The position numbers and the translations under genes are program-made. From Chloroflexia bacterium (GTDB lineage: Bacteria > Chloroflexota > Chloroflexia > QHBQ01 > JADMIH01), in NCBI GenBank assembly GCA_035274425.1, contig DATEOC010000017.1, positions 5,456 to 69,455 on the forward strand: a stretch of 64,000 bases of DNA, in the 5' to 3' direction. Shown one piece after another: positions 8,045 to 62,963 of the stretch. The notes below the pieces were generated by a model. That model had not been told where the DNA came from. It saw only the letters and a program-made list of their open reading frames with translations, and searched no databases. The stretch's first letter is position 1. Each line of letters starts with the position of its first letter.

Positions 8045-8200
8045 CCGACGGACGACGGACGACGGACGACGGACGAGGGTCTAAACGCAGAGACGCAAAG
8101 ACGCAGAGGACGCACAGAGATTATTAAGAATATGTATTAACCAATAATAATCTCTGTGTTACCTTTGTGCTCTCTGTGTCTCTGCGTGTAATCGGTCATC
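8045..8200. repeat. Intergenic heptamer tandem repeats (ACGACGG x4.5, then degenerate GACGCAG/AGACGCA units) followed by a long imperfect palindrome (~45-bp arms centred ~8150)
   Basis: Direct reading: ccgacggacgacggacgacggacgacggacga, then ...acgcagagacgcaaagacgcagaggacgcacagagattattaag / cttaataataatctctgtgttacctttgtgctctctgtgtctctgcgt. Confidence 0.8.
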
Positions 8201-27262: not shown

Positions 27263-27958
27263 TTAGAGATATTGGTGCATACAGAAATTGCAGTAGCCGC
27301 CCTCGGGTCGGGGAAGGACATCCACCTGAAAGGCGGTGAGCGCGGTTTGTACAGCGCACAACGGTAGGCCGATCACAGTGGTAACGCACCCCTCGACGTG
27401 CTCGATTAGCCTCCCACCCAGCCCCTGAAGTGCGTAAGCGCCAGCCTTATCGCTATGCTCCCCAGTAGCTACATATCCCTCAAGCTCTTTGGCACCGAAC
27501 TGGCGCATAATTACTCTGGTCAGAACGGCCTGCGAGTGAAGAGTTCGTGGGGTAGTGCCTTCAGCGCGTACCAGCACGAATCCGGTAGCCACATAATGTG
27601 CCTGACCTCGGAGTAATGTCAGCATACGCAAAGCGTCGGTGGTGTCCACGGGCTTGCCCAGCAGCTCCCCAGGCGCGATAACCACCGTATCCGCAGCGAG
27701 CACAATCGCGTCTGCCGACTGCTCAAGGGAAAGGGTAGAGAGGGCATCAACAGCCTTGCGCCAGGCCCACAGGCGAGGGTCAGATGTATGGGGCACGCTG
27801 AAGGGGGCGGGCAAAGCGAGTGGCTCTAGTTCCCATTCAGGGTACGTCTCTGATCCCACTTCCTCTACTGTGCTTACTACGGTCGAAAATGAGGGAACGA
27901 GCCGCCGTATAAGCTCCTGTCGCCTGGGAGATGCGGAAGCGAGAATTACCTGGGGCAT
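27263..27958 (-). CDS. maf: Maf-like nucleoside triphosphate pyrophosphatase (septum formation protein Maf)
   Basis: VILASASPRRQELI N-terminal Maf signature. Start set at MPQVILAS. The longer ORF (to 28003) would translate a GAAGTCC heptamer array into KPKSEVRSPKSE and overlap the ruvA stop. Confidence 0.75.
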   Translation of the reverse strand: MPQVILASASPRRQELIRRLVPSFSTVVSTVEEVGSETYPEWELEPLALPAPFSVPHTSDPRLWAWRKAVDALSTLSLEQSADAIVLAADTVVIAPGELLGKPVDTTDALRMLTLLRGQAHYVATGFVLVRAEGTTPRTLHSQAVLTRVIMRQFGAKELEGYVATGEHSDKAGAYALQGLGGRLIEHVEGCVTTVIGLPLCAVQTALTAFQVDVLPRPEGGYCNFCMHQYL

Positions 27959-27992
27959 TTCGGACTTTGGACTTCGGACTTCGGACTTCGGT

Positions 27993-31019: not shown

Positions 31020-31770
31020 TGCTGTTGGGGACGACGGAGGACGGACGATAGACTGATTAAACGCCAAGACGCCAAGATGACGAAGGACGCCAAGATTATT
31101 TATGGGTATTCACCGCAGAGACGCAGAGGTCTTATGGGGAGTGGTCTTGGTGGTGTTGGTGGGTGCGGGGGTAAGGGCATGGCGACGCCATGCCCCTACG
31201 GGCGCGTTGGGTTGTTGGGTTGGGTGCCCCTGTGCCGCAACTGGTTCCTGGTGATTTATCTCGGTGCCTGGGGTGCCTCTAAATACACCACCAGGGGTGA
31301 GCTTTGGGCATGGCGCTCCTACCAGGTGAGGATTGACCTGCGCTGTGCCGTTGTGTCGAATGTGGAGTAGCGAGTGGAGTGTGGAGCGTGAAACGTGAAA
31401 CGTGAAACGTGAGTGTAGATGTACTCGGTACTCGATATTCTGGGCTGAGACCTCCTTTTCGGGGGTGACGAGGGAGAGTGTAACTCCCTTGATGATAGGG
31501 ACACCAGCGGGACCCTTTGGGTTGGACCTCGACTGCGGACGGCGAGGTCGGAAATGCATCTCTATTAACTTAATCCCCTTTCGGGGGTAAAATGGGACAG
31601 CTTTTTGGGCCAATTTCCCAAATTGGTCCGAAATTGGTGGTTTTGAGGGCGTTTGGGAGGGCGATAGACGATAGACGATAGACGATAGACGACAGACGAC
31701 AGACGACAGACGACGAAGGACGAAGGACGAATTGGTCATCAGCTACTCGCTACTCGCTACTCGCTACTCA
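31020..31770. repeat. ~900-bp non-coding region densely packed with heptamer/octamer tandem repeats (GACGGAC, ACGCCAAG, GTGAAAC x3, TACTCGG, GATAGAC x4, GACAGAC x3, GACGAAG x2, TACTCGC x4) and G-rich tracts
   Basis: Direct reading, e.g. 31391-31411 cgtgaaacgtgaaacgtgaaacg and 31665-31770 gatagacgatagacgatagacgatagacgacagacgacagacgacagacgacgaaggacgaaggacga...ctactcgctactcgctactcgctactc. ORFs called across it (31005..31370+, 31110..31739-) are repeat-encoded and judged spurious. Confidence 0.8.
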
Positions 31771-42106: not shown

Positions 42107-42115
42107 TCCCCACAT

Positions 42116-49146: not shown

Positions 49147-52100
49147 GTGCGTACCCAAGATCGTCTAGCAACTACGTCATCCGCGTCGTCTACATTCCTA
49201 CACAACCTGGGCAAGCCTGCGACGGGGGAAGGGTCCGAGACCCACTCCTACGATCACCTCTCCCTTGCCCAACGGCGTATATGGGCATTGGACCAGTTGG
49301 TCCCAGGCAGCCCACAACATAACTCTTATATTGCCCTCCACCTCGCCGGACCGCTTGATCCACAAAGGCTGGAACGGTGCCTCAAAAAGGTCGGAGAACG
49401 GCATGATATTTTGCGGACTGCTTTCCCCCTGATTGATGGGCAGCCGGTCCAGATAGTAGCAGACCTCCCTTTCACTTTGCCCTTGCCCTTGTCCGACCTC
49501 AGTGGCCTGCCTGAGGCGGAGAAGGGCGACGCAGTAAAGCGTCTGGCGAGGGAAGAAGCGCAATACCCCTTCGACCTGGCGCAAGGCCGGTTGATACGGG
49601 CCGCACTGCTGCGCCTGGGCAACGATGAGCACCTACTGCTGCTGACGGCGCATGGGATTGTATGCGACGATCTCTCCATCAGGGTACTATGTGAGGAGTT
49701 GGCCGCGCTCTACGCCGCCTCGTCCACGGAAGAGCATTCGCCCCTCCCTCAGCCGCCGATGCAGTATGTCGACTATGCAGCTCGGCAGGAGGAGTGGCTG
49801 AAAGGGGAGGAGGCACAGGCCCAGATTGCATACTGGAAGGGGCAATTGGGCGGCAACCCTCCCGTGCTCGAATTACCTGCTGACCGGCCACGACCTCCGG
49901 TGCAGACGCATTACGGCGCTCGCCAACCTCTGCTCTTACCCTCCGAATTGGTGGAGGCGGTCAAGAGATTGAGTCAGCAGGAAGGGGTGTCGTTGTTCCT
50001 GACGATGCTATCGGCGTTCGAGACATTGCTCTATCGTTACACGGGACAGAGCGACATTGTGCTCGGTACGGAGACCGCTGGCCGCACCTCACCTGAGGGA
50101 GCAGGCTCTATAGGTCCACTTGCCAACATGCTGGCGTTGCGCACCAGCCTGGAAGGAGATCCCAGCTTCCGCGAGTTGCTGAAACGGGTGGGGCAGGTAG
50201 TTGCTGATGCGCACGCCAATGGAGACGTGCCTTTCGAGAAGCTGGTAGAAGAGTTACAGCCTGAGCGCGATCTGAGCCGCGCACCCTTCTTTGGGCTGAC
50301 CTTTGCTTTTCAAGACGCTCCGCCCCAACTGGAGTTTCCGGGTCTAATCGGCTCTATCCTCGACCTTGATCCGGGCATCGCGAAGTATGACCTCTCTCTG
50401 TCTATTGTAGACACGGAGGGTGACCTGAGTGGATGGGCCGAGTACAACAGTGATCTCTTTGACGCCTCGACCATCCGCAGGATGCTTGGGCATTTTCAGA
50501 TGCTGTTGGGAAGTATCGTGTCTGACCCTGGCCTTGTAATTTCAAAGCTGCCTATGCTGACCGATGCCGAGCGCCAGCAGTTGCTTGTCGGGTGGAACAG
50601 CACCGGCACGGGCTACCCACAGAGCGCGTGTATACACGAGTTGTTTGAGAGACAGGTGGAGAAGACGCCAGATGCGCCGGCTATCAGTTTCAAGGGTAAA
50701 CGTCTGACGTACCGGCAACTCAACAGCAAAGCTAACAAGCTGGCTCACCACCTGCGGGCGCTTGGGGTGGGTCCTGAGAAGCCGGTCGGGGTCTGCATGG
50801 AGCGCTCGCTCAACCTGGTGGCCGCTATGATGGGGGTGCTGAAAGCGGGCGGGGCCTATGTGCCCCTCGACCCAGCTTACCCGCACGACCGTCTCTCCTT
50901 TATGCTCGCGGACTCGCAGGCCCCAGTGTTGCTTACGCAGAGAGGGCTGTATGCGGAGCTTGCAACGCTGGGGGAGCATGGGGCGAAGGTGGTCTACCTC
51001 GATGATGGGTGGGAGGAGGCCATCGCGGGTGAGGAAGGGAATCCCGCGCCCATTTCCAACTCAGATAACCTGGCCTACATCCTCTATACCTCTGGCTCGA
51101 CCGGACGCCCAAAGGGAGTGAGCATCGAGCATAGGAGTGGCATTGCGCTCATAGAATGGGCGAAAGAGACGTATACGGAGGAAGAGCTTTCCAGGGTGTT
51201 GGCCTCGACCTCGATCTCGTTCGACCTCTCGGTGTTCGAGTTATTCGTCACATTGAGCGGTGGGGGTATGGTCGTCCTCGTAGAGAACGCGCTTCACCTG
51301 CCCACCCTCGGCCCTGAGGAACAAGTCACGCTGGTAAACACCGTCCCTTCGGCGATTGCCGAGCTACTGCGCACTGGAGGCGTGCCCACTTCGGTGCGCG
51401 TGGTCAACCTCGCCGGAGAGCCGTTGCAGCAAACGCTAGTCCAGCAGCTTTACGCACAGGTGCCGACCTGCCGGGTGTTCAACCTTTACGGCCCGACCGA
51501 GGACACCACTTACTCCACCTTCGCGCTCATGGAGAAGGGGAGTACGACGTTGCCGACCATCGGGCGGCCAATCGCCAACAGCCAGGTCTACCTGCTCGAC
51601 CGGCACGGAGAGCCGGTGCCGGTGGGCGTGCCAGGCGAGTTGTACATGGGCGGGGCAGGACTCGCCAGGGGCTACCTAAACCGCCCCGACCTCACTGCTG
51701 AGCGGTTCGTACCAAACCCCTTTTCTGATTTTGGATTTTGGATTTTGGATTTTGGAGTGGACCCTGATAATCCAAAATCCAAAATCCAAAATCCAAAATC
51801 AGGAGGGCGGCTGTACAGGACGGGCGACCTGGCGTCTTACCTGCCGGACGGCAACATCCGGTTTCATGGGCGGCTGGACCACCAGGTGAAACTCCGGGGG
51901 TTCCGCATCGAGCTTGGTGAGATCGAGGCGGTGCTGAGGCAGTACCCTGCCTTGCAGGATGTGGTGCTGATGGTGAGGGAAGATGTCGCGGGTGACAAGA
52001 GGTTGGTGGCTTACGTAGTCCCCAGCCCAGACTCCTCACTCGTCAGCTCTCAGCTGCGCGATTATCTGAGGGAGAGGCTGCCGGAATACATGGTCCCGTC

Positions 52101-55100
52101 GGCTTTTGTGGTGCTGGAGAAGCTCCCCCTCACACCAAATGGCAAGGTGGACCGCCGCTCTCTGCCCGCCCCTGAACTGGATAGGATGGAGGGCGGCGCT
52201 GAGTATGCCGCGCCGCGAAGCCCTGTAGAGGAAGCGCTTGCCGGTATCTGGGCCTCGGTGCTCGGCATCGAGCGTGTGGGGATACATGACAACTTCTTCG
52301 ACCTGGGAGGGCACTCGCTACTAGCGACTCAGGTGATCTCCAGGGTGCGGGAGGTGTTACATGCAGAGTTGCCGCTACGCCGCTTCTTCGAGACGCCTAC
52401 CGTGGCCGGTCTGGGTGAGAGTATCGAAGCAGCCCTTAAGGGAGGTTCAGTTGCTCCTGCCCCGTCCCTCCATCGCCTGCCCAGGAGAGAGAATTTACCC
52501 CTGTCGTTCGCGCAGCAGAGGCTCTGGTTCCTCGACCAGTGGCAGCCCGCTAGTGCCGCCTATAACATACCGGTTGTCATGCGCCTGGACGGGTCGCTCC
52601 AGGAGGAGGCGCTTCGGAAGAGCATCAACGCGATAGTCGAGAGGCATGAAGCTCTGCGCACAACCTTCTCGGTAGCAGGAGATCGGCCCGTGCAGGTGAT
52701 CGCTCCTGCCCTGGACGTTCCCCTGCCCGTTGTGGACCTGGGCAGTGTGCCCGACGAAAAGAGGGAAGCGGAGGCCCAACGGCTGGTCAAGGAGGAAGCA
52801 CGACGCCCGTTCGACCTGGCTCGGGGACCCTTGTTGCGTGCTCGCTTGCTGCGCCTGGACGAGGAGAGACACCAACTCGTGTTGGTCATGCACCACATCA
52901 TCTCGGATGGGTGGTCTATGGGCGTGCTGGCGCAGGAGCTGGCGGAGCTTTATAGGGCGTTCGCTGCCGGGGAGGCTCCGTCCCTTCGCGACCTGCCGGT
53001 ACAATATGCCGATTACACCATCTGGCAGCGAGAGTGGCTGCAAGGCGAGGCGCTCCAGGGCCAGCTCGATTATTGGAAGGGGCAACTGGCCGGCGCACCC
53101 GCCGCTCTCGAGATGCCAACAGATCGCCCTCGCCCCGCTATGCTCACTTATCGCGGGGCAAAGCAGCCATACCGTCTTACCGGAGACCTTGCCCAGGAGT
53201 TGAAGGGAATGGTCCGGCGCGAAGGGGTGACGATGTACATGGCGCTCCTTTCGGCTTTCACGGCGCTCCTCCACCGATACACGGGGCAGACCGACATCGT
53301 GGTAGGCTCGCCCATAGCCAACCGTACCAGGCCTGAGATCGAGGGGCTGATCGGCTTCTTCGTCAACATGCTGGCGTTACGGACCGACCTTTCAGGCGAC
53401 CCGACCTTCCGGGAGTTGCTGGGCCGGGTGCGAGAGGCGTCGCTGGGGGCGTATGGCCACCAGGACTTGCCGTTCGACAGGCTGGTGGAGGAGATGCAGC
53501 ATGAGCGCAATCTGGCCTACCATCCCATCTTCCAGGTAGCCTTCGTCCTCCAGAATGCGCCTACGGTAGCCCTGCAACTGCCAGGCTTGAGTATCGCCAA
53601 CCTTGAGGTTGATAAGGTTGACATGGGCACGGCGCGGTTTGACCTGATGTTTATCATCGAGGAAAGAGAGGAGGGGCTGTCGGTTGAGGTCGAATACAGC
53701 ACCGACCTGTTTGATGCTTCAACGATTACCCGCATGTTGGAGCACTACAGGGTCCTGTTGGAAGGAGTTGTCGCACAACCGGATCAGCGGGTATCAGAGC
53801 TGCCCCTGCTCACAGACGAGGAGCGGCAGCAGTTGCTCGTGGAGTGGAACAGCACGCATACCGACTACCCGCGAGACGAGTGCATTCACCCCCTCTTTGA
53901 GCGACAGGCGCAGCAGACGCCCGACGCAGTTGCGCTCATCTTCGGGGAAAAGCGCCTCACTTACCAGGAGTTGGACCAACGCGCTAACCGGTTAGCTCGC
54001 CACCTGAGAGATATGGGTATAGGCCGGGAAACGCTGGTAGGGGTCTGCATGGAGCGCTCTATAGAGATGGTGGTGGCGCTTTTGGGAGTGCTGAAAGCGG
54101 GTGGGGCGTATGTGCCTCTCGACCCCTCCTACCCGGAGGAGCGCCTGCGCTTCATGATGGAAGACACGCAAATTTCTGTGTTGTTGACTCAAGCGGTGCT
54201 GGCGGAGAAGCTCCCCGCTCATGTGGCGCGGGTAGTGCGCTTAGATACCGACTGGAGCGATATTGCCCGACAAAGCAGTGAGCCACTAGAGAGCGAGACG
54301 ACGGCAGAGAACCTGGCATACGTGATGTACACCTCCGGCTCCACCGGGCAGCCGAAGGGGATCGGCGTGCCGCACCGGGGAGTGGTCCGGCTGGTCAAGA
54401 ATACCAATTATGCTGACCTTTCCGACGACCAGGTATTACTCCAGTTCGCGCCTATCTCATTCGATGCGTCCACGCTCGAAATCTGGGGCAGCCTGCTCAA
54501 CGGAGCGCGCCTGGTGATTTACCCAACCACCGATGTGCCCCTCCTGGAAGAGCTGGCCCAGGTTATTGAAGAGTACGGCGTCACCACGCTATGGCTGACG
54601 GCGGGGCTGTTCCACCACATGGTAGAAGGCGGCCACCTGCGAGGGCTGACTAGCTTGCGCCAGCTGCTGGCTGGTGGGGACGTTCTATCGGCCCCTCACG
54701 TCAGGAAGGCTATCCAACAACTGGGAAGTGGCTGCACGCTGATAAACGGCTACGGCCCCACAGAGAACACAACCTTCACCTGCTGCTACCCTATGACCCA
54801 GTCGGCGCAGGTAGGCGACTCGGTGAGCATAGGCAGACCTATCGCCAACACGCAGGTCTATCTGCTCGACCGGCATTTGCAGCCCGTGCCGGTAGGGGTG
54901 GCAGGGGAGCTTTATATAGGTGGAGACGGCCTGGCGAGGGGTTACCTGAACCGCCCCAACCTCACGGCGGAGCGCTTCGTGCCCAACCCCTTCTTGAGTG
55001 CGGAATTCGGAGTGCGGAGTGCGGAATGGGACGAAGAGGCAAAAGAAGGTAGTAAGCAGAAGGCAGAAGGCAGTAATTACAATCCGCACTCCGCAGGTTC

Positions 55101-55914
55101 TTGGGCTATGCCCAATTCAGGCACTCCGCATTTAGAGGGGCGGCTCTACAGGACTGGCGACCTGGCTCGCTATCTGCCTGACGGGAGGATAGAGTTCCTG
55201 GGGCGCATAGACCAGCAGGTGAAGGTGCGTGGGTTCCGCATCGAGCTTGGCGAGATCGAGGCTGTGCTGGCCCAGCACCCGTCTGTGCAAGATGTCGTCG
55301 TCACGGCGCGAGAGCGGGACGATGCGCCCGGCGATAAGCGTCTGGTGGCCTATGTAGTGGGCGACTCTGGGCAAGGTCAGCCTTCCACACCCTCTGAGTT
55401 GCGCCAATACTTGAAAGAGAGGCTGCCGGAGTACATGGTCCCGTCGGCGTTCGTACAGATGGAGAAGCTGCCCCTCACGGCTAACGGCAAGGTGGACCGC
55501 CGTGCGCTCCCCGCGCCTGAGCTGGGGCGGGCAGAAGGAGACGCGGAGTACGTAGCGCCGCGCAATCCTGTAGAGGAGACGGTAGCGGCGATTTGGGTCT
55601 CGGTGCTGGGCATCGAGCGCGTGGGCGTTCACGACAGCTTCTTCGAGGTGGGCGGGCACTCGCTTGCAGCTACGCAGGTGGTATCGAGGGTGCGCGAGGC
55701 GTTACGTGTAGAGCTGCCGCTACGCCGCCTCTTCGAGACGCCTACCATAGAAGGCCTGGCAGAGGCAATCACCGAGATACAGAGCGATGTGTCAGCAGAG
55801 ATACCGGCCATAAGCAGGGCAAGTGCGGAAGAGTGGGGAGAGTTTCCGGACATCGAGGGGCTATCGGACGAGGAAGTGGATGCGCTCTTGCGAGAGATGA
55901 TGGCAGACAGGTAA
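49147..55914 (+). CDS. Non-ribosomal peptide synthetase, two modules: C(starter-type, variant active-site motif)-A-PCP-C-A-PCP, with a C-terminal docking tail
   Basis: C1 motif is LLLTAHGIVCDDLS (AHxxxDD in place of HHxxxDG). C2 is HHIISDGWS. A-domain cores appear twice: LKAGGAYVPLDP, YTSGSTGRPKG, NLYGPTE, GELYMGGAGLARGYL, YRTGDLA, GRLDHQVKLRGFRIELGEIE, NGKVDRR. PCP FFDLGGHSLLATQ appears twice. Approximate domain spans (nt): C1 49250-50570, A1 50630-52170, PCP1 52240-52440, C2 52500-53860, A2 53880-55520, PCP2 55590-55790. Confidence 0.9.
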   Translation: MRTQDRLATTSSASSTFLHNLGKPATGEGSETHSYDHLSLAQRRIWALDQLVPGSPQHNSYIALHLAGPLDPQRLERCLKKVGERHDILRTAFPLIDGQPVQIVADLPFTLPLPLSDLSGLPEAEKGDAVKRLAREEAQYPFDLAQGRLIRAALLRLGNDEHLLLLTAHGIVCDDLSIRVLCEELAALYAASSTEEHSPLPQPPMQYVDYAARQEEWLKGEEAQAQIAYWKGQLGGNPPVLELPADRPRPPVQTHYGARQPLLLPSELVEAVKRLSQQEGVSLFLTMLSAFETLLYRYTGQSDIVLGTETAGRTSPEGAGSIGPLANMLALRTSLEGDPSFRELLKRVGQVVADAHANGDVPFEKLVEELQPERDLSRAPFFGLTFAFQDAPPQLEFPGLIGSILDLDPGIAKYDLSLSIVDTEGDLSGWAEYNSDLFDASTIRRMLGHFQMLLGSIVSDPGLVISKLPMLTDAERQQLLVGWNSTGTGYPQSACIHELFERQVEKTPDAPAISFKGKRLTYRQLNSKANKLAHHLRALGVGPEKPVGVCMERSLNLVAAMMGVLKAGGAYVPLDPAYPHDRLSFMLADSQAPVLLTQRGLYAELATLGEHGAKVVYLDDGWEEAIAGEEGNPAPISNSDNLAYILYTSGSTGRPKGVSIEHRSGIALIEWAKETYTEEELSRVLASTSISFDLSVFELFVTLSGGGMVVLVENALHLPTLGPEEQVTLVNTVPSAIAELLRTGGVPTSVRVVNLAGEPLQQTLVQQLYAQVPTCRVFNLYGPTEDTTYSTFALMEKGSTTLPTIGRPIANSQVYLLDRHGEPVPVGVPGELYMGGAGLARGYLNRPDLTAERFVPNPFSDFGFWILDFGVDPDNPKSKIQNPKSGGRLYRTGDLASYLPDGNIRFHGRLDHQVKLRGFRIELGEIEAVLRQYPALQDVVLMVREDVAGDKRLVAYVVPSPDSSLVSSQLRDYLRERLPEYMVPSAFVVLEKLPLTPNGKVDRRSLPAPELDRMEGGAEYAAPRSPVEEALAGIWASVLGIERVGIHDNFFDLGGHSLLATQVISRVREVLHAELPLRRFFETPTVAGLGESIEAALKGGSVAPAPSLHRLPRRENLPLSFAQQRLWFLDQWQPASAAYNIPVVMRLDGSLQEEALRKSINAIVERHEALRTTFSVAGDRPVQVIAPALDVPLPVVDLGSVPDEKREAEAQRLVKEEARRPFDLARGPLLRARLLRLDEERHQLVLVMHHIISDGWSMGVLAQELAELYRAFAAGEAPSLRDLPVQYADYTIWQREWLQGEALQGQLDYWKGQLAGAPAALEMPTDRPRPAMLTYRGAKQPYRLTGDLAQELKGMVRREGVTMYMALLSAFTALLHRYTGQTDIVVGSPIANRTRPEIEGLIGFFVNMLALRTDLSGDPTFRELLGRVREASLGAYGHQDLPFDRLVEEMQHERNLAYHPIFQVAFVLQNAPTVALQLPGLSIANLEVDKVDMGTARFDLMFIIEEREEGLSVEVEYSTDLFDASTITRMLEHYRVLLEGVVAQPDQRVSELPLLTDEERQQLLVEWNSTHTDYPRDECIHPLFERQAQQTPDAVALIFGEKRLTYQELDQRANRLARHLRDMGIGRETLVGVCMERSIEMVVALLGVLKAGGAYVPLDPSYPEERLRFMMEDTQISVLLTQAVLAEKLPAHVARVVRLDTDWSDIARQSSEPLESETTAENLAYVMYTSGSTGQPKGIGVPHRGVVRLVKNTNYADLSDDQVLLQFAPISFDASTLEIWGSLLNGARLVIYPTTDVPLLEELAQVIEEYGVTTLWLTAGLFHHMVEGGHLRGLTSLRQLLAGGDVLSAPHVRKAIQQLGSGCTLINGYGPTENTTFTCCYPMTQSAQVGDSVSIGRPIANTQVYLLDRHLQPVPVGVAGELYIGGDGLARGYLNRPNLTAERFVPNPFLSAEFGVRSAEWDEEAKEGSKQKAEGSNYNPHSAGSWAMPNSGTPHLEGRLYRTGDLARYLPDGRIEFLGRIDQQVKVRGFRIELGEIEAVLAQHPSVQDVVVTARERDDAPGDKRLVAYVVGDSGQGQPSTPSELRQYLKERLPEYMVPSAFVQMEKLPLTANGKVDRRALPAPELGRAEGDAEYVAPRNPVEETVAAIWVSVLGIERVGVHDSFFEVGGHSLAATQVVSRVREALRVELPLRRLFETPTIEGLAEAITEIQSDVSAEIPAISRASAEEWGEFPDIEGLSDEEVDALLREMMADR
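51725..51802. repeat. 78-bp perfect inverted repeat of GGATTTT heptamers (31-bp arms, 16-nt spacer) inserted in frame into the A6-A7 loop of NRPS adenylation domain 1
   Basis: ctgattttggattttggattttggattttgg / agtggaccctgataat / ccaaaatccaaaatccaaaatccaaaatcag. It encodes SDFGFWILDFGVDPDNPKSKIQNPKS between FVPNPF and GGRLYRTGDL. 78 = 26 codons. Confidence 0.9.
54996..55131. repeat. In-frame heptamer-repeat/partial-palindrome insertion (GAGTGCG..., GAAGGCA x3, ...CCGCACTCCGCA) in the A6-A7 loop of adenylation domain 2
   Basis: gagtgcggaattcggagtgcggagtgcggaat ... gaaggcagaaggcagtaat ... aatccgcactccgcagg ... cactccgca. It encodes LSAEFGVRSAEWDEEAKEGSKQKAEGSNYNPHSAGSWAMPNSGTPHLE. Confidence 0.85.
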
Positions 55915-55924
55915 GGTTGATGCA

Positions 55925-58900
55925 ATGAGCACTATGGACAGACCACTGGCAGACCTCTCACCCAAGGAGAAGCGCGCCCTCCTCGCGGAGCAGGTCAGGC
56001 AGAGAGCTGCGCAGACTGACGCTCCCAGGCATTTCCCCCTGTCGTTTGCCCAGATGCGTCTGTGGTTCCTCGACCGCATGGAAGGGGGCAGCCCCTTTTA
56101 CAACGTCTCGTTTGCCACGCGCCTGACGGGGCCGCTCCATCTGGAGGCGTTGAGGCGTAGCATCAGCGAGATCGTGCGTCGCCATGACACATTGCGGAGC
56201 AGCTTCGTGACGGCGGACGAGGATCCTGTGCAGGTTGCCGCGTCGTACGCGGATGTGCCCCTGCCGGTCCAGGATGTGCGACATCTACCTGCGCAGGAGC
56301 GCGAACGGGAGGCCCACTCGCTCCTAACCGAGGAAGCGCAGCGCCCCTTCGACCTGGCGCAAGCTCCCCTGGTACGCACGTTGATAATACGGCTGGATGA
56401 GGAAGAGCACCTCCTCCTGGTGACGATGCACCACATCATCGCGGATGGGTGGTCGTTCCATCTTTTCCACGGTGAATTGCAGACTTTGTATTCGGCCTTC
56501 GTCGCCGGCAATCCATCTCCACTACCTGAATTGCCTATCCAGTACGGCGATTACGCTGTCTGGCAGCGAAAGCGGCTGCAAGGCGAGATTCTACAAGCTC
56601 AGCTTGAATACTGGATGAGGCAGATCAGAGGCGCGCCGCCCTTGCTGGAACTGCCCGCTGACCGGCCACGCCCAGCCAGGCAGACCTACAGGGGAGCCAC
56701 CCAATCTATCACTTTGCCGCCGGAACTGGTCCACGAACTGGAGCACCTGAGCAAGCAGGAGGGTGTCACCTTCTTCATGACGTTGTTGGCGGCATTCGAT
56801 GCACTGATCTACCGCTATACAGGCCAGACCGACGTCGTGGTGGGCGCGCCGATAGCGGGGCGCACGCGCAGGGAGGTAGAAGGGTTAATAGGTTTCTTCG
56901 CCAACACCCTACTCTTTAGGGCCGACCTGGGAGGTGAGCCTACTTTCCGCGAGCTTTTGGCCAGGGTCAAGGAAGTGGCGTTGGGCGCATACGACCACCA
57001 GGACCTGCAGTTCGAGCGGCTTGTAGAAGAAGCTCAACCTGAGCGCAACCTGAGCTACAATCCGCTCTTCCAGGTGATGTTTGGACTGGAGAACACGCCC
57101 CGCGAAATTCGGGAGCAATCGGGCCTGGTGTTCGACACTGCCCTCTTCGAAAGCGGCACATCCATCGTTGATCTGTCTCTCACGATCATCGACACTCCAC
57201 AGGGTACCCAGGCGCAGGCTGAATACAGTACAGATTTGTTCGATAGAGACACGATTACCAGGTTGCTGGGGCACTACCGCACGCTGTTGGAGGCAGTGGC
57301 CCGCGACCCCCAGACTCCGGTCTCCCAACTGCCGATCCTGACCGAGAGTGAGCGGCGCACACTCTTGGTCGAATGGAACGATACCCGTAATGACTACCCA
57401 CGAGAGTTATGCGTCCACCAGTTATTCGCGGCGCAGGCGAACCGCACGCCCGACAAGGTTGCCCTGGTGTATGGCAAGCAGAAGCTGACGTACCGGGAAC
57501 TGAGTGAGCGCGCAAACAAGCTGGCCCATTACCTGCGGACGCTTGGGGTAGGCCCTGACACCCTGGTGGGCATATGCGTGGAGCGCTCGATAGAGATGGT
57601 GGTAGGTGTGCTCGGAGTGCTGAAGGCAGGTGGGGCATACGTGCCACTAGACCCTACATACCCGAAGGAGCGGCTGGCCTACATGGTAGAGGATTCGGGG
57701 GCCGGAGTGCTGCTCTCTCAAGAGGAGTTAGCCGGGCTTGCTCAAGACCTGGCCGGACAGCGCGCCCACAGGGTGCTCCTCGACCGCGATTGGAAGGGGA
57801 TAGAGCCCCAGCCCGCAGGCGATCCGGCCCCAGAGGGTGGCCCCGACAACCTGGCCTACGTTATTTATACCTCCGGCTCTACAGGCAGGCCCAAGGGGGT
57901 GCAGGTCCCCCACCGTGCCCTAACTAACCACTTATGGTCCATGAAAGCTAAGCCTGGGCTGGCGGAGGATGATGTGCTGTTGGCCGTCACTTCCCTCTCG
58001 TTCGATATAGCCGCCTTAGAGTTGTACCTGCCCCTCGTCACCGGTGCTACGCTGGTGCTGGCTAGCAAGGATATCGCCTCCGATGGCATTCTCCTGGGAA
58101 GGGAAATAGCCGAGAGGGGAGCGACTGTAATGCAGGGCACGCCCGCGTCGTGGCGGCTGCTGTTCATAGCCGATGCCTGGCCTGCCCGGGCAACAGGTAC
58201 CCTGAAGGCGCTGTGCGGTGGTGAGGCGCTCCCTGTTTCGTTGGCTTATGACCTGTCGTGCAGGGCAGTCGCCGTGTGGAACATGTACGGCCCTACCGAA
58301 ACGTGCATCTGGTCTACCATCCACAAGGTGGAGATAGGGGAACAGAAAGGTCCCAACTCCTCCGTAACCAGTATAGGCAGGCCCATTGCCAACACGCAGG
58401 TGTACCTTCTGGATCGCCACATGCAGCCTGTGCCAATAGGGGTGGCAGGGGAGCTTTATATAGGCGGTGATGGCCTGGCGCGAGGCTACCTGGGCAGGCC
58501 AGACCTGACTGCCGAGCGTTTCGTACCCAACCCCTTTTCGAATGCGGAATTCGGAGTGCGGAATGCGGAATCAGCTTCTAATCCGTACTCCGCAGGTTCT
58601 TGGGCTACGCCCAATTCAGGCACTCCGCACTCAGGAGAGAGGCTGTACAAGACGGGGGACCTGGCTCGCTATCTGCCTGACGGAAGGATAGAGTTCCTGG
58701 GGCGGATAGACCAGCAGGTGAAGGTGCGTGGGTTCCGCATCGAGCTTGGCGAGATTGAGGCTGTGCTGGGCCAGCACCCTGCTCTGCGTGAAGCGGTCGT
58801 AAGCGTGCGGGGTAGAGAGAGTGACGACAAACGGTTGGTAGCTTACGTTGTGGCGCACCCCGGTCAGGCTCCATCTTCAACAGAGCTGCGCAACCTCCTG

Positions 58901-59401
58901 CGAGCCAGGCTGCCAGAATATATGATCCCCTCGACATTCGTCCTCTTGGATAAGATGCCGCTCACACCCAACGGTAAGGTAGACCGCAAGGCGCTCCCTG
59001 AGCCTGAAGGCTGCGAGGAGTGCAGGGGCGACTTGTATGTCGTGCCACGCACGCCCCTGGAAGCGCAACTGGCAGCAGTGTGGGCGGGCGTTCTGAAAAA
59101 GGAGCGCTTCGGCGTAACCGATAACTTCTTCGACCTCGGCGGCCATTCGCTCTCTGCTATGCGGATGGTGTCCAGGGTGCGTACCGCGCTCAGCATTGAC
59201 GTAGCTTTGCGCACTCTGTTTGAAGCTCCAACAATAGAGGGCCTGGCCCTTGCGATAATGCGGGCGCAAGGAGGTGCCGGGACAACGTTAGTTGCGCCGC
59301 GTATAGTCCATCTCATTCCTGAGCCGGATGAAGAAGAAGCACCCCTGAACATAGGCGAGCTTTCCGCCGAGGAGATAGATTCGCTCCTTAAGACTTTATA
59401 A
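55925..59401 (+). CDS. Non-ribosomal peptide synthetase, one module: C-A-PCP with N- and C-terminal docking regions
   Basis: HHIIADGWS. A-domain cores LKAGGAYVPLDP, YTSGSTGRPKG, NMYGPTE, GELYIGGDGLARGYL, YKTGDLA, NGKVDRK. PCP FFDLGGHSLSAMR. Confidence 0.9.
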   Translation: MSTMDRPLADLSPKEKRALLAEQVRQRAAQTDAPRHFPLSFAQMRLWFLDRMEGGSPFYNVSFATRLTGPLHLEALRRSISEIVRRHDTLRSSFVTADEDPVQVAASYADVPLPVQDVRHLPAQEREREAHSLLTEEAQRPFDLAQAPLVRTLIIRLDEEEHLLLVTMHHIIADGWSFHLFHGELQTLYSAFVAGNPSPLPELPIQYGDYAVWQRKRLQGEILQAQLEYWMRQIRGAPPLLELPADRPRPARQTYRGATQSITLPPELVHELEHLSKQEGVTFFMTLLAAFDALIYRYTGQTDVVVGAPIAGRTRREVEGLIGFFANTLLFRADLGGEPTFRELLARVKEVALGAYDHQDLQFERLVEEAQPERNLSYNPLFQVMFGLENTPREIREQSGLVFDTALFESGTSIVDLSLTIIDTPQGTQAQAEYSTDLFDRDTITRLLGHYRTLLEAVARDPQTPVSQLPILTESERRTLLVEWNDTRNDYPRELCVHQLFAAQANRTPDKVALVYGKQKLTYRELSERANKLAHYLRTLGVGPDTLVGICVERSIEMVVGVLGVLKAGGAYVPLDPTYPKERLAYMVEDSGAGVLLSQEELAGLAQDLAGQRAHRVLLDRDWKGIEPQPAGDPAPEGGPDNLAYVIYTSGSTGRPKGVQVPHRALTNHLWSMKAKPGLAEDDVLLAVTSLSFDIAALELYLPLVTGATLVLASKDIASDGILLGREIAERGATVMQGTPASWRLLFIADAWPARATGTLKALCGGEALPVSLAYDLSCRAVAVWNMYGPTETCIWSTIHKVEIGEQKGPNSSVTSIGRPIANTQVYLLDRHMQPVPIGVAGELYIGGDGLARGYLGRPDLTAERFVPNPFSNAEFGVRNAESASNPYSAGSWATPNSGTPHSGERLYKTGDLARYLPDGRIEFLGRIDQQVKVRGFRIELGEIEAVLGQHPALREAVVSVRGRESDDKRLVAYVVAHPGQAPSSTELRNLLRARLPEYMIPSTFVLLDKMPLTPNGKVDRKALPEPEGCEECRGDLYVVPRTPLEAQLAAVWAGVLKKERFGVTDNFFDLGGHSLSAMRMVSRVRTALSIDVALRTLFEAPTIEGLALAIMRAQGGAGTTLVAPRIVHLIPEPDEEEAPLNIGELSAEEIDSLLKTL
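58541..58630. repeat. In-frame GAATGCG/GAGTGCG heptamer insertion with partial reverse-complement (CCGTACTCCGCA...CACTCCGCAC) in the A6-A7 loop of adenylation domain 3; 3' half near-identical to the module-2 insertion
   Basis: aatgcggaattcggagtgcggaatgcggaat...aatccgtactccgcaggttcttgggctacgcccaattcaggcactccgcac. It encodes SNAEFGVRNAESASNPYSAGSWATPNSGTPHS. Confidence 0.85.
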
Positions 59402-59462
59402 CTGGATGATAGACGATAATCACGCATCACTTATTAACTGCATAAGGTGAGTAACACAACAT

Positions 59463-62400
59463 ATGAACAGAGATACTAGCCCTACGCCAACGGCAGAACT
59501 TACCCTTGAGCAGAAGCGCGCCCTTCTCGCGCAACAGCTAGCCAAGCGGCAGAAGCCTCGTGCGTTCTCTACATCGTTTGCTCAGCAACGGCTCTGGCTC
59601 GTTGACCAACTTGAGCCTGGCAATGCATTCTACAACGTACCTATCGCCACCCGCCTGACCGGGCCACTCGACGTTGCAACACTGGAGCGGAGCCTCGCTG
59701 AGGTAGTGCGCCGCCACGATGACCTGCGCACTACCTTCTCGGTTGTGGAAGGCCAGCCTATGCAGGTTGTCGCCTCGATGGTCAAGGTGCCTTTACAGGG
59801 CGTGGACCTGCGACATCTGCCTGAGGAAGCGCGGGAGGCAGAGGCCAAACGCATCACCGAAGAGGAGGCGCGCAGGCCGTTTGACCTAGTGCAGGGTCCA
59901 CTTATACGAACCATCCTCCTGCGAACGGGTGAGGAGGAGCACCTGCTGATGCTGACGATGCACCATATCGTCTCTGACGGTTGGTCCATGCAGATTTTCT
60001 ACGAGGAATTGGAGGCGCTCTACAACGCCTTCACGGAGGGGAAGCCATCGCCGCTCCCTGAGTTGCCGGTACAGTACGCCGATTACGCGGTGTGGCAGCG
60101 AAACTGGCTACAGGGCGACGTTCTGCAAGCGCAGCTTGACTACTGGAAGAAGCAGCTAGAAGGCGCGCCTCCCCTGCTGGAACTGCCGACTGACCGCCCA
60201 CGCCCTCCCGCACAGACCTTCAAGGGCGACCACGAGTCTATAGTGCTGCCTACGAGCCTGGCACAACAGTTGGAAGCGCTGGGGAGAAGAGAGGGGGCCA
60301 CCCTCTTCATGACCTTACTCGCGGCGTTCGGGACGCTGCTCCACCGCTACACAGGGCAGGCAGACATCGTCATAGGCTCTCCCATCGCGGGCCGCACCCA
60401 CGAGGAGCTTGAGGGACTGATCGGATTCTTCGTCAATACGCTGGTGTTGCGATCAAACTTTGCGGGGGACCCTACCTTCCGTGAATTGCTCAAGAGGGTG
60501 AGGGAGACCGCGTTGGGGGCATATGCTCACCAGGATGTACCTTTCGAGAAGCTGGTCGAGGAGCTGCAACCTGGGCGCGACATGAGCCGGACCCCTTTCT
60601 TCCAGGTGATGTTCGTGCTACAGAACGCGCCCATCCCTGACCCCAAATTGAAGGGCCTTCAGGCCAAGACATTCATTGTGGACAGCGGCACGGCCAAGTT
60701 CGACCTGACGCTGGATATGCAGAACGAAGAGGATGGGCTGCACGGGGACCTGGAATACAACACTGACCTGTACGACGCATCAACCATCAGGCGTATGCTG
60801 GGACACTTCCAAACGCTCCTTGAGGGTATCGTCTCCGATCCTACACTTAGGGTATCGGAGCTACCATTGCTTAGCGGTGACGAACGGCAGCAGTTGCTGG
60901 TGGAGTGGAACAGCACATACAGGGAGTACCCGCACGATAGGTGCATACACCAGTTGTTCGAGGAGCAGGTAGAGAAGACACCTGACGCCGTAGCTGTAGT
61001 GTTCGGTGACGAGCAGTTGACTTGCGGGGAGTTGAACAGTAGAGCGAACAAGCTGGCACGACATCTGCGAAAATTGGGAGTAGGGCCGGAGGTGCTGGTA
61101 GGGCTGTGCGTGGAGCGCTCCATTGAGATGGTGGTAGGGCTGTTGGGGATACTGAAGGCAGGGGGGGCATACGTTCCCCTGGACCCTTCCTACCCCAAAG
61201 ATAGGCTTGCGCACATACTGGAAGATAGTCGCGCTCCCGTGCTAGTCACGCAAAGTACGCTCAGCCTGGCGAGCGAACTATCTCATAAGGTGCAAACTGT
61301 CTATCTTGACAGGGACTGGACAGCTATCGAGGGTGAGAGTGGTGAGAACCTCGACCAGCAAGGGATAAGCGTAACGCCGGACAACATGGCGTATGCCATC
61401 TACACCTCCGGCTCTACCGGCCTGCCGAAGGGGGTGCTTGGCCTGCATCGCGGGGCCATCAATCGCTTCCGGTGGATGTGGGAGACCTACCCTTTCACAG
61501 AGGGCGAGGTCTGCTGCCAGAAGACCGCCCTGAGCTTCGTCGACTCGATCTGGGAGATATTCGGCCCATTGCTACAGAGCGTTTCGCTAGCTATCATCCC
61601 TGACGAGGTGTTGAAGGACCCACAGCTGTTCGTGGGTGCGCTCGCAAAAGCGGGAGTTACGCGTCTTGTGCTTGTGCCCTCTCTTCTTCGGGTGCTATTG
61701 GAAACTGATCACGATCTCGATGCCAAACTGCCCAGGTTGAAGGTGTGGGCGACCAGCGGCGAGGCGCTTTCGACGGATCTGGCGCACCGCTTCAAGATGA
61801 TGCTCCCTGGCCGTACCCTGCTGAATATCTACGGCTCGTCGGAAGTGTCCGCCGACGTGACCTGGCACGACCTGAGCCGAGAGAGCGCCGACCTCACACG
61901 AGTACCCATTGGCCGCCCCATCGCCAATACCCAGGTGTACCTGCTTGACAGGCAGATGCAGCCCGTGCCTATAGGCGTGCCCGGTGAGGTGTACGTGGGC
62001 GGGGCCAACATGGCGCGAGGCTATGTTGGGAAGCCGGAGTTGACAGCCGAACGGTTCGTGCCCAACCCCTTTGGGAGTGCGGAATTCGGAGTGCGGAGTG
62101 CGGAGTTAGACGAAGGACGAAGGACGAAAGACGAATATTCAGAAGGCAGAGGGCAGAAGGCAGAAGGCAGTAATCATACTCCGCACTCCACACTCCACAC
62201 TCCGCACTTGGAAGGGCGTCTGTACAAGATGGGCGACCTTGCCCGCTACCTCCCAGATGGCAGCATAGAGTACCTGGGTCGGGCCGATTACCAGACGAAG
62301 ATACATGGCTTCCGCATCGAACCGGACGAGATCGCGGCCACTCTCGCGCAGCATGATGCCGTCCGAGAGTGCGTGGTTATCGTCCGAGAGGACGAGCCTG

Positions 62401-62963
62401 GCGACAGACGCCTGGTGGCTTACACCGTTTTAGGCGAGCCGGGGAGCGCGACGGTGGGGGACCTGCGGCTCTTCTTGAGGCAGAAGCTGCCCGACTACAT
62501 GGTCCCTTCGTCATTTGTGTTCCTAGACGCATTGCCGCTGACGCCGAGCGGTAAGGTAGACCGCCGGGCGCTCCCCGCGCCTGGGCAGGAGGCGGTTGAA
62601 GAGGATAGCGGCTACGTGGCGCCACGCGACGCAATAGAGGAAGTGCTGGCCGATATGTGGGCCGAGATGCTGCGGCTGGAGCGGGTAGGCGTCTACAGCA
62701 ACTTCTTCGACCTGCGCGGGCACTCCCTCCTGGCGATGCAGCTTGTCTCCCGGGTCCGCGATGCGTTCCGGGTGGAGCTTCCGCTGCGCAAGATGTTCGA
62801 GGACCCTACAGTCGCGGGCATGGCGGCTGCGCTGGTCGCGCAGGAGCCGAAGCCGGGGCGCACCCTGAAGGCCGCCCAGATTCTGCAACAACTCGAAGGT
62901 ATGTCTGAGGCCGAGGTCCTCAGCACGCTCCGGGAGCAGCAAGCGAAGCGAGGTGCTCCTTGA
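59463..62963 (+). CDS. Non-ribosomal peptide synthetase, one module: C-A-PCP
   Basis: HHIVSDGWS. A-domain cores LKAGGAYVPLDP, YTSGSTGLPKG, NIYGSSE, GEVYVGGANMARGYV, YKMGDLA, GRADYQTKIHGFRIEPDEI, SGKVDRR. PCP FFDLRGHSLLAMQ (Arg in place of the usual Gly before the HS). Confidence 0.9.
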   Translation: MNRDTSPTPTAELTLEQKRALLAQQLAKRQKPRAFSTSFAQQRLWLVDQLEPGNAFYNVPIATRLTGPLDVATLERSLAEVVRRHDDLRTTFSVVEGQPMQVVASMVKVPLQGVDLRHLPEEAREAEAKRITEEEARRPFDLVQGPLIRTILLRTGEEEHLLMLTMHHIVSDGWSMQIFYEELEALYNAFTEGKPSPLPELPVQYADYAVWQRNWLQGDVLQAQLDYWKKQLEGAPPLLELPTDRPRPPAQTFKGDHESIVLPTSLAQQLEALGRREGATLFMTLLAAFGTLLHRYTGQADIVIGSPIAGRTHEELEGLIGFFVNTLVLRSNFAGDPTFRELLKRVRETALGAYAHQDVPFEKLVEELQPGRDMSRTPFFQVMFVLQNAPIPDPKLKGLQAKTFIVDSGTAKFDLTLDMQNEEDGLHGDLEYNTDLYDASTIRRMLGHFQTLLEGIVSDPTLRVSELPLLSGDERQQLLVEWNSTYREYPHDRCIHQLFEEQVEKTPDAVAVVFGDEQLTCGELNSRANKLARHLRKLGVGPEVLVGLCVERSIEMVVGLLGILKAGGAYVPLDPSYPKDRLAHILEDSRAPVLVTQSTLSLASELSHKVQTVYLDRDWTAIEGESGENLDQQGISVTPDNMAYAIYTSGSTGLPKGVLGLHRGAINRFRWMWETYPFTEGEVCCQKTALSFVDSIWEIFGPLLQSVSLAIIPDEVLKDPQLFVGALAKAGVTRLVLVPSLLRVLLETDHDLDAKLPRLKVWATSGEALSTDLAHRFKMMLPGRTLLNIYGSSEVSADVTWHDLSRESADLTRVPIGRPIANTQVYLLDRQMQPVPIGVPGEVYVGGANMARGYVGKPELTAERFVPNPFGSAEFGVRSAELDEGRRTKDEYSEGRGQKAEGSNHTPHSTLHTPHLEGRLYKMGDLARYLPDGSIEYLGRADYQTKIHGFRIEPDEIAATLAQHDAVRECVVIVREDEPGDRRLVAYTVLGEPGSATVGDLRLFLRQKLPDYMVPSSFVFLDALPLTPSGKVDRRALPAPGQEAVEEDSGYVAPRDAIEEVLADMWAEMLRLERVGVYSNFFDLRGHSLLAMQLVSRVRDAFRVELPLRKMFEDPTVAGMAAALVAQEPKPGRTLKAAQILQQLEGMSEAEVLSTLREQQAKRGAP
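62075..62208. repeat. In-frame composite heptamer insertion (CGGAGTG x3, GACGAAG x3, GAAGGCA x4, then reverse-complement CCGCACT/CCACACT units) in the A6-A7 loop of adenylation domain 4
   Basis: gagtgcggaattcggagtgcggagtgcggagttagacgaaggacgaaggacgaaagacgaat...gaaggcagagggcagaaggcagaaggcag...actccgcactccacactccacactccgcact. It encodes GSAEFGVRSAELDEGRRTKDEYSEGRGQKAEGSNHTPHSTLHTPHLE. Confidence 0.85.

Follow-up and report, generated by a model that had tools for sequence, protein, structure and literature searches.

In-frame heptamer-repeat inserts at a single loop of nonribosomal peptide synthetase adenylation domains in a Chloroflexia bacterium

The end of a 64-kb stretch of DNA from a Chloroflexia bacterium (contig DATEOC010000017.1; the whole analyzed stretch is referred to as the window) encodes nonribosomal peptide synthetases (NRPSs) whose four adenylation (A) domains are all lengthened at the same place, the loop between core motifs A6 and A7. 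The locus raises the question of how one loop came to be extended in every module by DNA made of 7-nt units, and whether the extension serves the enzyme. In the explanation that we favor, with a probability of roughly 0.6, heptamer blocks were seeded by a process acting on DNA, passed through a coding filter, and spread between modules by conversion while turning over rapidly. In character, the inserts resemble tolerated DNA, either selfish or neutral, more than a new feature of the enzyme.

The last 15 kb of the window comprise three co-directional NRPS genes, delimited by open reading frame (ORF), translation and Pfam domains. The first, nrpsA (49147..55914, + strand), encodes two modules (C-A-T-C-A-T) and hosts A domains M1 and M2; nrpsB (55925..59401, +) and nrpsC (59463..62963, +) encode one module each (C-A-T) and host M3 and M4, respectively. 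For nrpsB, an AlphaFold2 model was also used. The AMP-binding and AMP-binding_C Pfam domains are present on all three genes, motifs A3, A5, A6, A7, A8 and A10 are readable in the translations, and HMMER E-values against solved A domains go down to 1e-197, as is proper for NRPS adenylation domains. A copy of the nrpsB protein with 100% identity is annotated in an NCBI Chloroflexia bacterium metagenome-assembled genome (MAG). The A6-A7 loop was measured in translated ORFs from ERFVPNPF, at the end of the A6 region, to RLY[RK]xGD at A7; the core motifs bounding it are GELYIGGxGLARGYL (A6) and Y[RK]TGD (A7). The usual length was 6 aa, found in 92 of 116 loops from 120 homologues and in 85 of 136 loops from 80 genome loci of many phyla, or ~ 70% of the A domains surveyed. 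The four loops of the window measured 28-49 aa, i.e. 22-43 residues above the usual length. A first-pass annotation of this DNA had announced inserts at one loop position in all four A domains; this is correct, and its coordinates for M2-M4 agree with ours within 10 nt, but its description left out M1, which lay outside the range given and has a unit of its own.

The four loops, all on the + strand, were dissected with Tandem Repeats Finder (TRF) and by translation. The M1 loop (51724..51807) codes for 28 aa, SDFGFWILDFGVDPDNPKSKIQNPKSGG. Its arms, (GATTTTG)x4.3 at 51727-51756 and (CAAAATC)x4.6 at 51769-51800, are separated by a 12-nt spacer and form a perfect 32-bp inverted repeat, with a predicted DNA hairpin of -34.8 kcal/mol (z-score -9.6) and an RNA hairpin of -49.4 kcal/mol (z -8.3). 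The M2 loop (54994..55140, 49 aa) begins with a 5' arm of GAGTGCG-type units (x4.3, 54996-55030), continues through a degenerate GACGAAG/GAAGGCA block at 55044-55075 (AGAAGGC x4.3 according to TRF), and ends in CGCACTC units at 55081-55095 and 55122-55130, which are split by a 26-nt stem-loop piece at 55096-55121. In the M3 loop (58538..58639, 34 aa), the 5' arm consists of GAATGCG/GAGTGCG x4.6 (58540-58571), and the 3' half is nearly the same as that of M2, including the 26-nt piece (58595-58620). As the first-pass annotation had noticed, M2 and M3 share this 3' half; it spans 50 nt with 2 differences. The 26-nt piece, GGTTCTTGGGCTAYGCCCAATTCAGG, has its own 6-bp stem and sits within the CGCACTC array in both modules. 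We considered it as a dispersed element and rejected this, as no copy was found beyond M2 and M3 in the window or in 204 loci.

The M4 loop (62073..62216, 48 aa) contains four blocks, GAGTGCG x4.7 (62074-62106), GACGAAG x3.9 (62109-62135), CAGAAGG x4.4 (62140-62172) and ACTCCGC x4.4 (62178-62208), of which the outer two are inverted; its hairpin reaches z -5.9 as DNA and -54.3 kcal/mol (z -7.2) as RNA. TRF gives the outer units of M4 as GGAGTGC and ACTCCAC, and that of the second M1 arm as AATCCAA. GACGAAG and GAAGGCA arrays had been described as distinguishing M4 from M2 and M3, which does not hold, since M2 also carries arrays of this kind. Both had also been placed in intergenic DNA at 31700-31730. 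GACGAAG is indeed there (31712-31731), but tandem GAAGGCA is confined to the M2 and M4 inserts within the window. Taken together, the inserts are made of blocks of about four heptamer units, mostly in inverted arrays able to fold as a hairpin, with DNA z-scores of -9.6, -3.3, -2.9 and -5.9 for M1-M4. Reverse complements had been mentioned before, without the central point of the anatomy, that the outer arrays are inverted and hairpin-forming.

The arrays of period seven far exceed chance expectation. At lag 7, there are 11 perfect arrays with 3 or more copies in the window, against none at lags 4-6 or 8-12, and lag-7 perfect arrays did not appear in any of 50 Markov simulations. Within the NRPS coding DNA (13.8 kb), period-7 arrays occur at the four loops only. 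No known RNA family was found at the inserts at the Rfam gathering score, the only matches in the window being two tRNAs. The inserts also lack the marks of a miniature inverted-repeat transposable element, as no direct repeat flanks them and their internal sequence is not conserved.

Three orthologous clusters were compared with that of the window: L004 (JGI), L002/L003 (ENA/JGI) and L005 (Chloroflexia MAG JBAURA010000486). The nrpsB protein of L004 is 88% identical to that of the window, and its M3 A domain 92%; its M2 and M3 inserts, of 41 aa, use the window's units in a block content unlike that of window M2/M3, resembling window M4. L002 and L003 represent a cluster of five modules that also includes genes for MbtH, methyltransferase and thioesterase; amino acid identity per A domain is 77-82%. 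All five of its A6-A7 loops carry inserts, with a common 5' arm, (AGTACCG)4.3 (unit GAGTACC), and 3' parts that vary, (ATTACGA)4.4, (ACTCGGT)5, CTCAGCA and others; the inserts in L002 (ENA) and L003 (JGI), which come from different samples, are identical. L005 (72-80% identity) has ordinary loops, AKTPGE, AASAESGA and GAQPGA (6, 8 and 6 aa), without heptamer periodicity. Its M2 loop, GCAGCCTCCGCAGAGTCGGGCGCG, was examined as a possible deletion footprint; it is unit-like, but the order is wrong, and we took the resemblance as chance.

In these comparisons, A domains of corresponding modules cluster together, and the three lineages lie at about equal distances from one another. The M1 site is found in three states in these equidistant lineages: no insert, a GATTTTG hairpin, and GAGTACC+ATTACGA. 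The insert peptide is unconserved among the orthologues of the window, L002 and L004. The inserts are gained, lost and rebuilt faster than 10-25% protein divergence accumulates, and the heptamer arrays are fast-evolving markers between close strains. The first-pass annotation had recommended a look at the same cluster in relatives, where the inserts prove polymorphic (rearranged in L004, GAGTACC in L002, none in L005). Nor did the homologues show a conserved loop peptide devoid of heptamer periodicity, which it had named as evidence against a repeat origin: L002 and L004 are periodic with other units or blocks, and L005 has no insert.

Not every module acquired its insert on its own, as had been proposed. 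The 5' arms of M2, M3 and M4 share the same aberrant second unit, GAATTCG, and a sliding-window identity scan on a MAFFT alignment revealed a 440-nt tract (54850..55290, +), reaching from A6 through A8 across the insert, in which M2 and M3 are 82-98% identical at the nucleotide level against a background of 40-55%. We interpreted it as direct evidence of a gene-conversion tract carrying an insert. The shared GAATTCG unit and the M2/M3 tract therefore indicate that copying between modules contributes. In L002, the 30-nt 5' arm is identical in M1-M4, whereas the 120-150 nt flanks are just 61-82% identical. For module pairs other than M2/M3, copying would have been confined to the array itself.

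These data bear on the possibility that the loop extension is ancestral, inherited by module duplication and later reshaped by microsatellite slippage. The position is the same in all modules, and the peptides SAEFGVRSAE (window) and STEYRVPSTE (L002) are alike, GAGTGCG and GAGTACC differing at two bases. However, identity between sister modules is only 51-56%, against 58-65% between each module and foreign A domains; these foreign domains have normal loops of 3-6 aa, with the exception of P0086, which has its own insert. Because each module is closer to short-loop foreign A domains than to its sisters, the modules are older than the inserts, which therefore were not inherited through module duplication; ancestry would require many independent, precise losses. 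L005 has none of the three inserts, the arms of the L002 modules are 100% identical amid diverged flanks, and the M1 unit is unrelated to the others and found elsewhere in the genome. On this sequence evidence, an ancestral extension seems largely refuted, and we consider it very improbable.

In the favored account, the inserts are translated. In the window, L002 and L004, all 11 inserts have a length that is a multiple of 3 and contain no stops. No stop codon arises on either strand from GAGTGCG, GATTTTG or GAGTACC, the units that appear in both orientations. For ATTACGA and CTCAGCA, this is true of just one strand, and neither has an inverted partner; several intergenic units contain stop codons. 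This pattern is that of a coding filter on a DNA-level process, and we therefore argue that the inserts are translated. Removal as an intein, an intron or by RNA excision was considered and rejected, as the 11 stop-free multiples of 3 lack splicing and intein motifs. It must also be asked whether repeats misled the metagenome assembler. The window is a MEGAHIT-style metagenome contig (ENA ERZ27257050, k141_2444729), and repeats are a known source of misassembly. Nevertheless, at ~ 30 nt the arrays are shorter than the final k-mer, to judge from the contig name (k141); the reading frame is preserved in all inserts; the identical protein stands in the NCBI MAG record; and the separate samples L002 and L003 agree in their inserts. 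An artefact was therefore rejected as extremely unlikely.

In the AlphaFold2 model of nrpsB (mean predicted local distance difference test, pLDDT, 84.4; predicted template modeling score, pTM, 0.77), residues 883-903, within the M3 loop, are coil with pLDDT below 50 (35-45), flanked by blocks at 91-92. The insert is the lowest-confidence part of the modeled A domain and shows next to no secondary structure. When solved A domains are aligned with HMMER, the alignment is interrupted precisely at the insert; that to PheA (1AMU) runs to residue 402 and resumes at A7. The loop had been assigned to the hinge region between subdomains. It belongs to the N-terminal core domain, after PheA residue 402; according to established A-domain structures, the hinge is at A8, ~ 20 residues further on, and the hinge assignment is thus abandoned.

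Does the extension have a function? A flexible loop might tune A-domain dynamics or docking, or an RNA hairpin might pause ribosomes for folding of the N-terminal core or affect mRNA stability. In two related clusters, no A domain lacks the insert, which lies upstream of, and near, the boundary between subdomains. The RNA hairpins of several inserts are very stable, at -49 to -64 kcal/mol (z -7 to -13). This potential is, however, absent in L002 M1 (z +1.6) and weak (z -2.0 to -3.3) in five other inserts, namely M2 and M3 of the window, M3 and M4 of L002, and M2 of L004. The peptides range from hydrophobic (DFGFWILDFG) to highly charged (DEGRRTKDE) and are not conserved in orthologues, the L005 cluster and the great majority of surveyed A domains do without an insert, the modeled insert is almost all coil, and arrays identical to these turn up between genes as well as in unrelated proteins. 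A functional role is therefore unlikely in our view. The functional Lys/Glu/Ser-rich loop suggested by the first-pass annotation finds no support in the varying composition, the lack of conservation among orthologues and the pLDDT of 35-45, whereas its other suggestion, a tolerated hot spot at one structural position, is borne out, as is the common DNA-level origin that it proposed for units drawn from a genome-wide heptamer repertoire.

Heptamer insertion is not special to A domains. In-frame arrays are found in a helicase-associated protein, in aminoacyl-tRNA synthetases and in MnmA. The first of these is encoded in the window itself: the helicase-associated (Helicase_C_3) gene at 28574-30946 has an in-frame heptamer insert at 29213..29296 (- strand), which reads on the + strand as ATTTTGG x4.6 plus degenerate TGCCTTC and encodes KAEGS...QIQNPKSKIQN, with the same motifs as the A-domain inserts. 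GATTTTG thus recurs in this gene; GAGTGCG arrays within the window are restricted to the NRPS loops. In most of 70 Chloroflexia orthologues of the helicase-associated protein (P0154-P0228), the loop (SFRVTxEG..LLD to LLVQPNFEVLV) has ~ 12 residues, and several separate lineages carry heptamer-coded inserts of different units (NPKSKIQN; ALRTPHS). These inserts are independent, and the family repeats the pattern of one permissive loop struck repeatedly.

A metagenome scan for (GAGTRCS)x3 returned at least 120 loci. Among the matches listed, the units were GAGTGCG (71), GAGTGCC (43), GAGTACC (14) and GAGTACG (4), and most arrays were in short ORFs or in none; in-frame GAGTGCG-type arrays lay inside the Pfam domains of ValRS (anticodon-binding), IleRS (catalytic), MnmA and LeuRS, and, by motif inspection only, in a histidine kinase, a U32 peptidase and an MBOAT protein. 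These synthetase, MnmA, kinase, peptidase and MBOAT copies are on unrelated environmental contigs (L128, L184, L158, L161, L148, L135, L095). A protein search with the insert peptides retrieved many unrelated small ORFs with DFGFWILDFG, 3-9 variable residues and NPKSKIQNPKS, and GATTTTG-loop-CAAAATC peptides were also in frame in NTP_transf_3 and PurH-like fragments.

The same A6-A7 loop is extended in other NRPSs. In an Anaerolineae MAG (L206), both A6-A7 loops of an NRPS contain degenerate heptamer hairpins (3596-3727 and 6935-7021), and a Chloroflexota NRPS (L205) has one (2466-2540); these inserts are 25-44 aa long, with units GACGAAG/CTTCGTC, AGGGATG/CATCCCT and GACCGCC-type. In an Acidobacteriota MAG (L055), the loop at 15470-15577 has 36 aa with a perfect 19-nt inverted repeat, GGTCGTGATTTTGTTTGCC ... 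GGCAAACAAAACCACGACC, that is not heptameric. Loops of 18-19 aa at the cyanobacterial loci L006, L026 and L062 were counted as non-heptamer expansions. The AAAATCC/GATTTTG unit of M1 is also present in the A6-A7 loop of the Calothrix NRPS of L026 (4504-4560), beside a HIP1 site (GCGATCGC), and in the cyanobacterial ORFs L080 20942-20962 (Nostoc) and P0120 (Nostoc). The A6-A7 loop is naturally length-variable and permissive. A Calditrichia MAG (L057, 11992-12022) carries TCCGAAT x4.4 in frame in an NRPS just before motif A1 (NPNSEFRIPNS), so that a second NRPS position is able to take an array.

A mutational hot spot or targeted insertion has to be weighed here. The generator would prefer this DNA site for its local structure or for a replication or repair feature, the modules would be hit independently, and selection would be minor. 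The 5' junction lies 2-3 nt past a Phe codon, i.e. constant within 1 nt, in all 11 inserts (window, L002 and L004), even that of M1 with its unrelated GATTTTG array. The three states of the M1 site would also fit such a preference, as would the heptamer hairpins in the same loop of the separate NRPSs L205 and L206 (both modules), the full occupancy of the A domains, and the lack of arrays in the NRPS linkers of the window and L002. On the other hand, 12 other array pairs share no flanking DNA motif and show no target-site duplication, and the same units occur in unrelated contexts (aminoacyl-tRNA synthetases, MnmA, the helicase-associated protein and intergenic DNA). The helicase-associated loop has no similarity to the NRPS site and follows the same pattern, which a filter at the protein level fits better, and the L057 array lies upstream of motif A1 instead. 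We consider a targeted hot spot rather unlikely.

The explanation by seeding, filtering and conversion would operate as follows. A DNA-level process would seed heptamer blocks of about four units, often as inverted pairs, throughout the genome in this Chloroflexia lineage and in many environmental bacteria. For an array in coding DNA to survive, its unit would have to be free of stops in every frame, its total length divisible by 3 and its site a structurally permissive surface loop; purifying selection would remove the copies that fail on frame, stop or loop. In NRPS A domains, the permissive site would be the A6-A7 loop of the N-terminal core domain. An array in one module could then be copied into, or homogenized with, the loops of sister modules by short-patch gene conversion, with the arrays and the highly conserved DNA of A6 and A7/A8 as possible anchors; gene conversion would be the main route between modules. 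The arrays would then turn over fast by unit replacement, block gain or loss, and deletion, and the encoded peptide would be an unstructured loop extension with no conserved function, presumably neutral.

Several observations weigh against this explanation. All nine A domains of two lineages carry an insert and none is found in NRPS linkers, which is more uniform than random insertion plus a filter predicts. The constant 5' junction could mean site preference rather than selection. The L002 flanks lack raised identity, which restricts conversion there to the array, and no gene for a mobilizing enzyme was identified.

We must also consider what generates the blocks. Across all loci, the copy numbers of 285 perfect arrays form a plateau between 3 and 4.5 and fall steeply above 5. 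No matter which unit is repeated, a block has about 4 copies (28-33 nt), and more than 5 perfect copies are rare. In each of the 12 perfect inverted pairs (window 51727-51800; L002 9135-9216; L032, L114, L123, L124, L137, L159, L165, L170 and L182), the arm with G at least equal to C is the 5' one. As a universal rule, this polarity was rejected, because the degenerate L205 insert at 2466-2540 has a C-rich 5' arm; it holds for the 12 perfect pairs only. In inverted pairs, the arms are conserved, and the loops, of 12-102 nt, are unrelated in sequence. An origin by fold-back with exact mirror copying was likewise rejected, as the L004 M3 insert has its variant unit at position 2 in one arm and 3 in the other. 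The same units (GAGTGCG/GAGTGCC, GATTTTG) are found in unrelated organisms across phyla. We tentatively propose, as an unlikely possibility, that heptamer blocks are products of a dedicated, directional and quantized DNA-synthesis process common to several phyla, not slippage microsatellites. It may, for example, be reiterative or templated extension of a 3' end at a break or stalled fork, followed by end-joining. If true, this would account for the blocks of about four units, the G-rich 5' arm, the conserved arms with unrelated loops, serial blocks that differ by 1-2 bases, and the recurrence of units, and the A-domain, aminoacyl-tRNA synthetase and helicase-associated loops would be surviving scars of that synthesis. 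The four-unit quantum, the arm polarity and the cross-phylum units point to a generating mechanism that is now open to a whole-genome census.

Among known systems, the inserts come closest in behavior to Rickettsia palindromic elements (RPEs), dispersed palindromic repeats that reportedly lie in frame in protein-coding genes (attributed to Ogata and colleagues in 2000, and to Claverie and Ogata in 2003, and mentioned in PMC10969869, a review of miniature inverted-repeat transposable elements). In both, hairpin-forming repeat DNA is placed in frame in genes, including housekeeping genes, is translated into a surface peptide, is tolerated, and is variably present; the inserts studied here are palindromic, in frame and variable among orthologues. 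RPEs are ~ 100-150 nt long and have a conserved full-length consensus, whereas our inserts are mosaics of different modular blocks of about four units, with conserved arms, unrelated loops, many units, nested blocks and faster turnover, in another phylum and with no sequence similarity. By this analogy, the inserts seem to act like RPEs built of heptamer blocks, with no fixed consensus. The small dispersed repeats (SDRs) of Nostoc punctiforme, attributed to Elhai et al. (2008), reportedly lie as very small repeats within arrays of tandem heptamers and show nested insertions and a stem-loop. In M2/M3, the 26-nt piece that interrupts the CGCACTC array has such a look; SDRs are, however, cyanobacterial and not in-frame protein inserts, and the piece is found only twice, so that dispersal is unsupported.

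Interrupted A domains, a class credited to Labby et al. (2015), reportedly embed a methyltransferase, ketoreductase or oxidase domain and share with our loops the presence of extra sequence inside an otherwise intact A domain. There, the addition is a folded catalytic part of ~ 300-400 aa between a8-a9 or a2-a3; here, it is a low-confidence stretch of 22-43 aa between A6 and A7. This identity was rejected, given the small size and A6-A7 position of the inserts, the lack of an additional Pfam family, and the coil with pLDDT below 50.

The arrays themselves resemble heptanucleotide families of long simple sequence repeats (LSSR) and short tandemly repeated repetitive sequences (STRR), which are described as essentially intergenic direct repeats, under-represented in ORFs (PMC4692102, PMC4679880). 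The families include the STRR of heterocystous cyanobacteria (Mazel 1990) and those of the LSSR survey (Mrazek 2007), both as cited in PMC4692102 and PMC4679880, the GGGNATC repeats of Xanthomonas and Nostoc (PMC4692102), and the TAACTGA repeats of Beggiatoaceae and Cyanobacteria (PMC4679880). Like them, our arrays have head-to-tail 7-nt units in at least 3 copies, far above chance, form many dispersed short arrays, share units across distant phyla, prefer four units, and are limited in genic placement by stop codons. Dispersed, mainly intergenic loci occur within the 64-kb window at 8044, 10509, 10741-10799, 27955, 31029 and 31365-31769. In contrast to LSSR/STRR, our arrays often come as inverted pairs, and conserved protein domains repeatedly contain them in frame. 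Rehm et al. reported a four-unit preference for G4-forming units (PMC4692102), whereas the units here are incapable of forming G-quadruplexes. Our units (GAGTGCG, GATTTTG, GACGAAG, GAAGGCA, CGACGGA, CGATAGA and others) matched none of the published ones compared, i.e. CCCCAGT/TTGGTCA/CAACAGT (STRR1-3), GGGNATC and TAACTGA.

Repetitive extragenic palindromic (REP) sequences and REPINs, associated with RAYT transposases, are short, abundant hairpin repeats, often in inverted pairs, extragenic and with a GTAG/CGTC head (PMC3116915, PMC3733652). Our arrays are similarly short, abundant, hairpin-forming and paired in inverted orientation. They differ from REP/REPIN, which have a conserved sequence per family and a link to RAYT, in that the arms lack the GTAG/CGTC head and many copies are intragenic; no conserved loop was seen, and no RAYT gene or Y1 transposase was found among the 18 window ORFs scanned. 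Our literature search, whose incomplete coverage makes this weak evidence, found no paper on heptamer arrays in Chloroflexi or in A-domain loops; PMC3711429 was set aside as a precedent, as it concerns frameshift heptamers.

So far, heptanucleotide arrays have been regarded as curiosities of intergenic DNA in cyanobacteria and xanthomonads. The present arrays are abundant in Chloroflexia as well as in other uncultured bacteria of soils and mats, form inverted pairs, and repeatedly enter conserved proteins in frame, including aminoacyl-tRNA synthetases. In an intact and conserved cluster of five modules, the A6-A7 loop of each module accommodates 22-43 additional residues, whose composition is nearly unrestricted; since it tolerates such inserts, it is a candidate permissive site for tags or insertions in NRPS engineering. 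By the same token, it would be a mistake to read such inserts as functional domains or to let them split an A-domain annotation.

The remaining heptamer arrays of the window, mostly mapped with TRF and listed without strand, are intergenic. CGACGGA x4.4 (8044..8083) lies just past the stop codon of the gene for a 1646-aa surface protein. An inverted pair at 10509..10799 consists of (GACGGAC)x3.7 (10509-10534) and (TCGTCCG)x4.3 (10770-10799), with a TCTATCA-type block at 10741-10773. A TTCGGAC x4.7 array (27955..27991) is situated between ruvA and the probable true maf start; the longest maf ORF runs through it (PKSEVRSPKSE), and the Maf domain begins after an internal Met, so the array probably lies in the maf 5' leader. 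A further block at 31029-31048 is followed by a cluster at 31365..31769 that contains GAGTAGC/GAGTGGA, CGTGAAA x3.7, GTACTCG x2, CGATAGA x4.4, AGACGAC x4.0, GACGAAG x2.9 and GCTACTC x4.0. Adjacent blocks at 31660-31731 differ by 1-2 bases (CGATAGA -> CGACAGA -> CGAAGGA), and the cluster has GACGAAG in common with M4 and GAGTACC in common with the L002 NRPS inserts.

Apart from these arrays, the window contains an apparent integrated mobile element (32766-44543) adjoining two tRNA genes (32766-32837 and 33375-33457). Its ORFs include several without a Pfam match, an HNH/HTH protein (32796-33353), a tyrosine integrase (33547-34689), a 937-aa Prim-Pol protein (36911-39724) and a DNA methylase (42116-43378). 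Coding tandem repeats unrelated to heptamers were observed at 1320-1505, 1955-2100 and 7051-7282, with periods of 33/78, 39/72 and 36/72/108 nt. They sit in two large ORFs, of 996 aa (11-3001) and 1646 aa (3104-8044), the latter protein having LTD, PLD, CBM and SLH domains according to Pfam.

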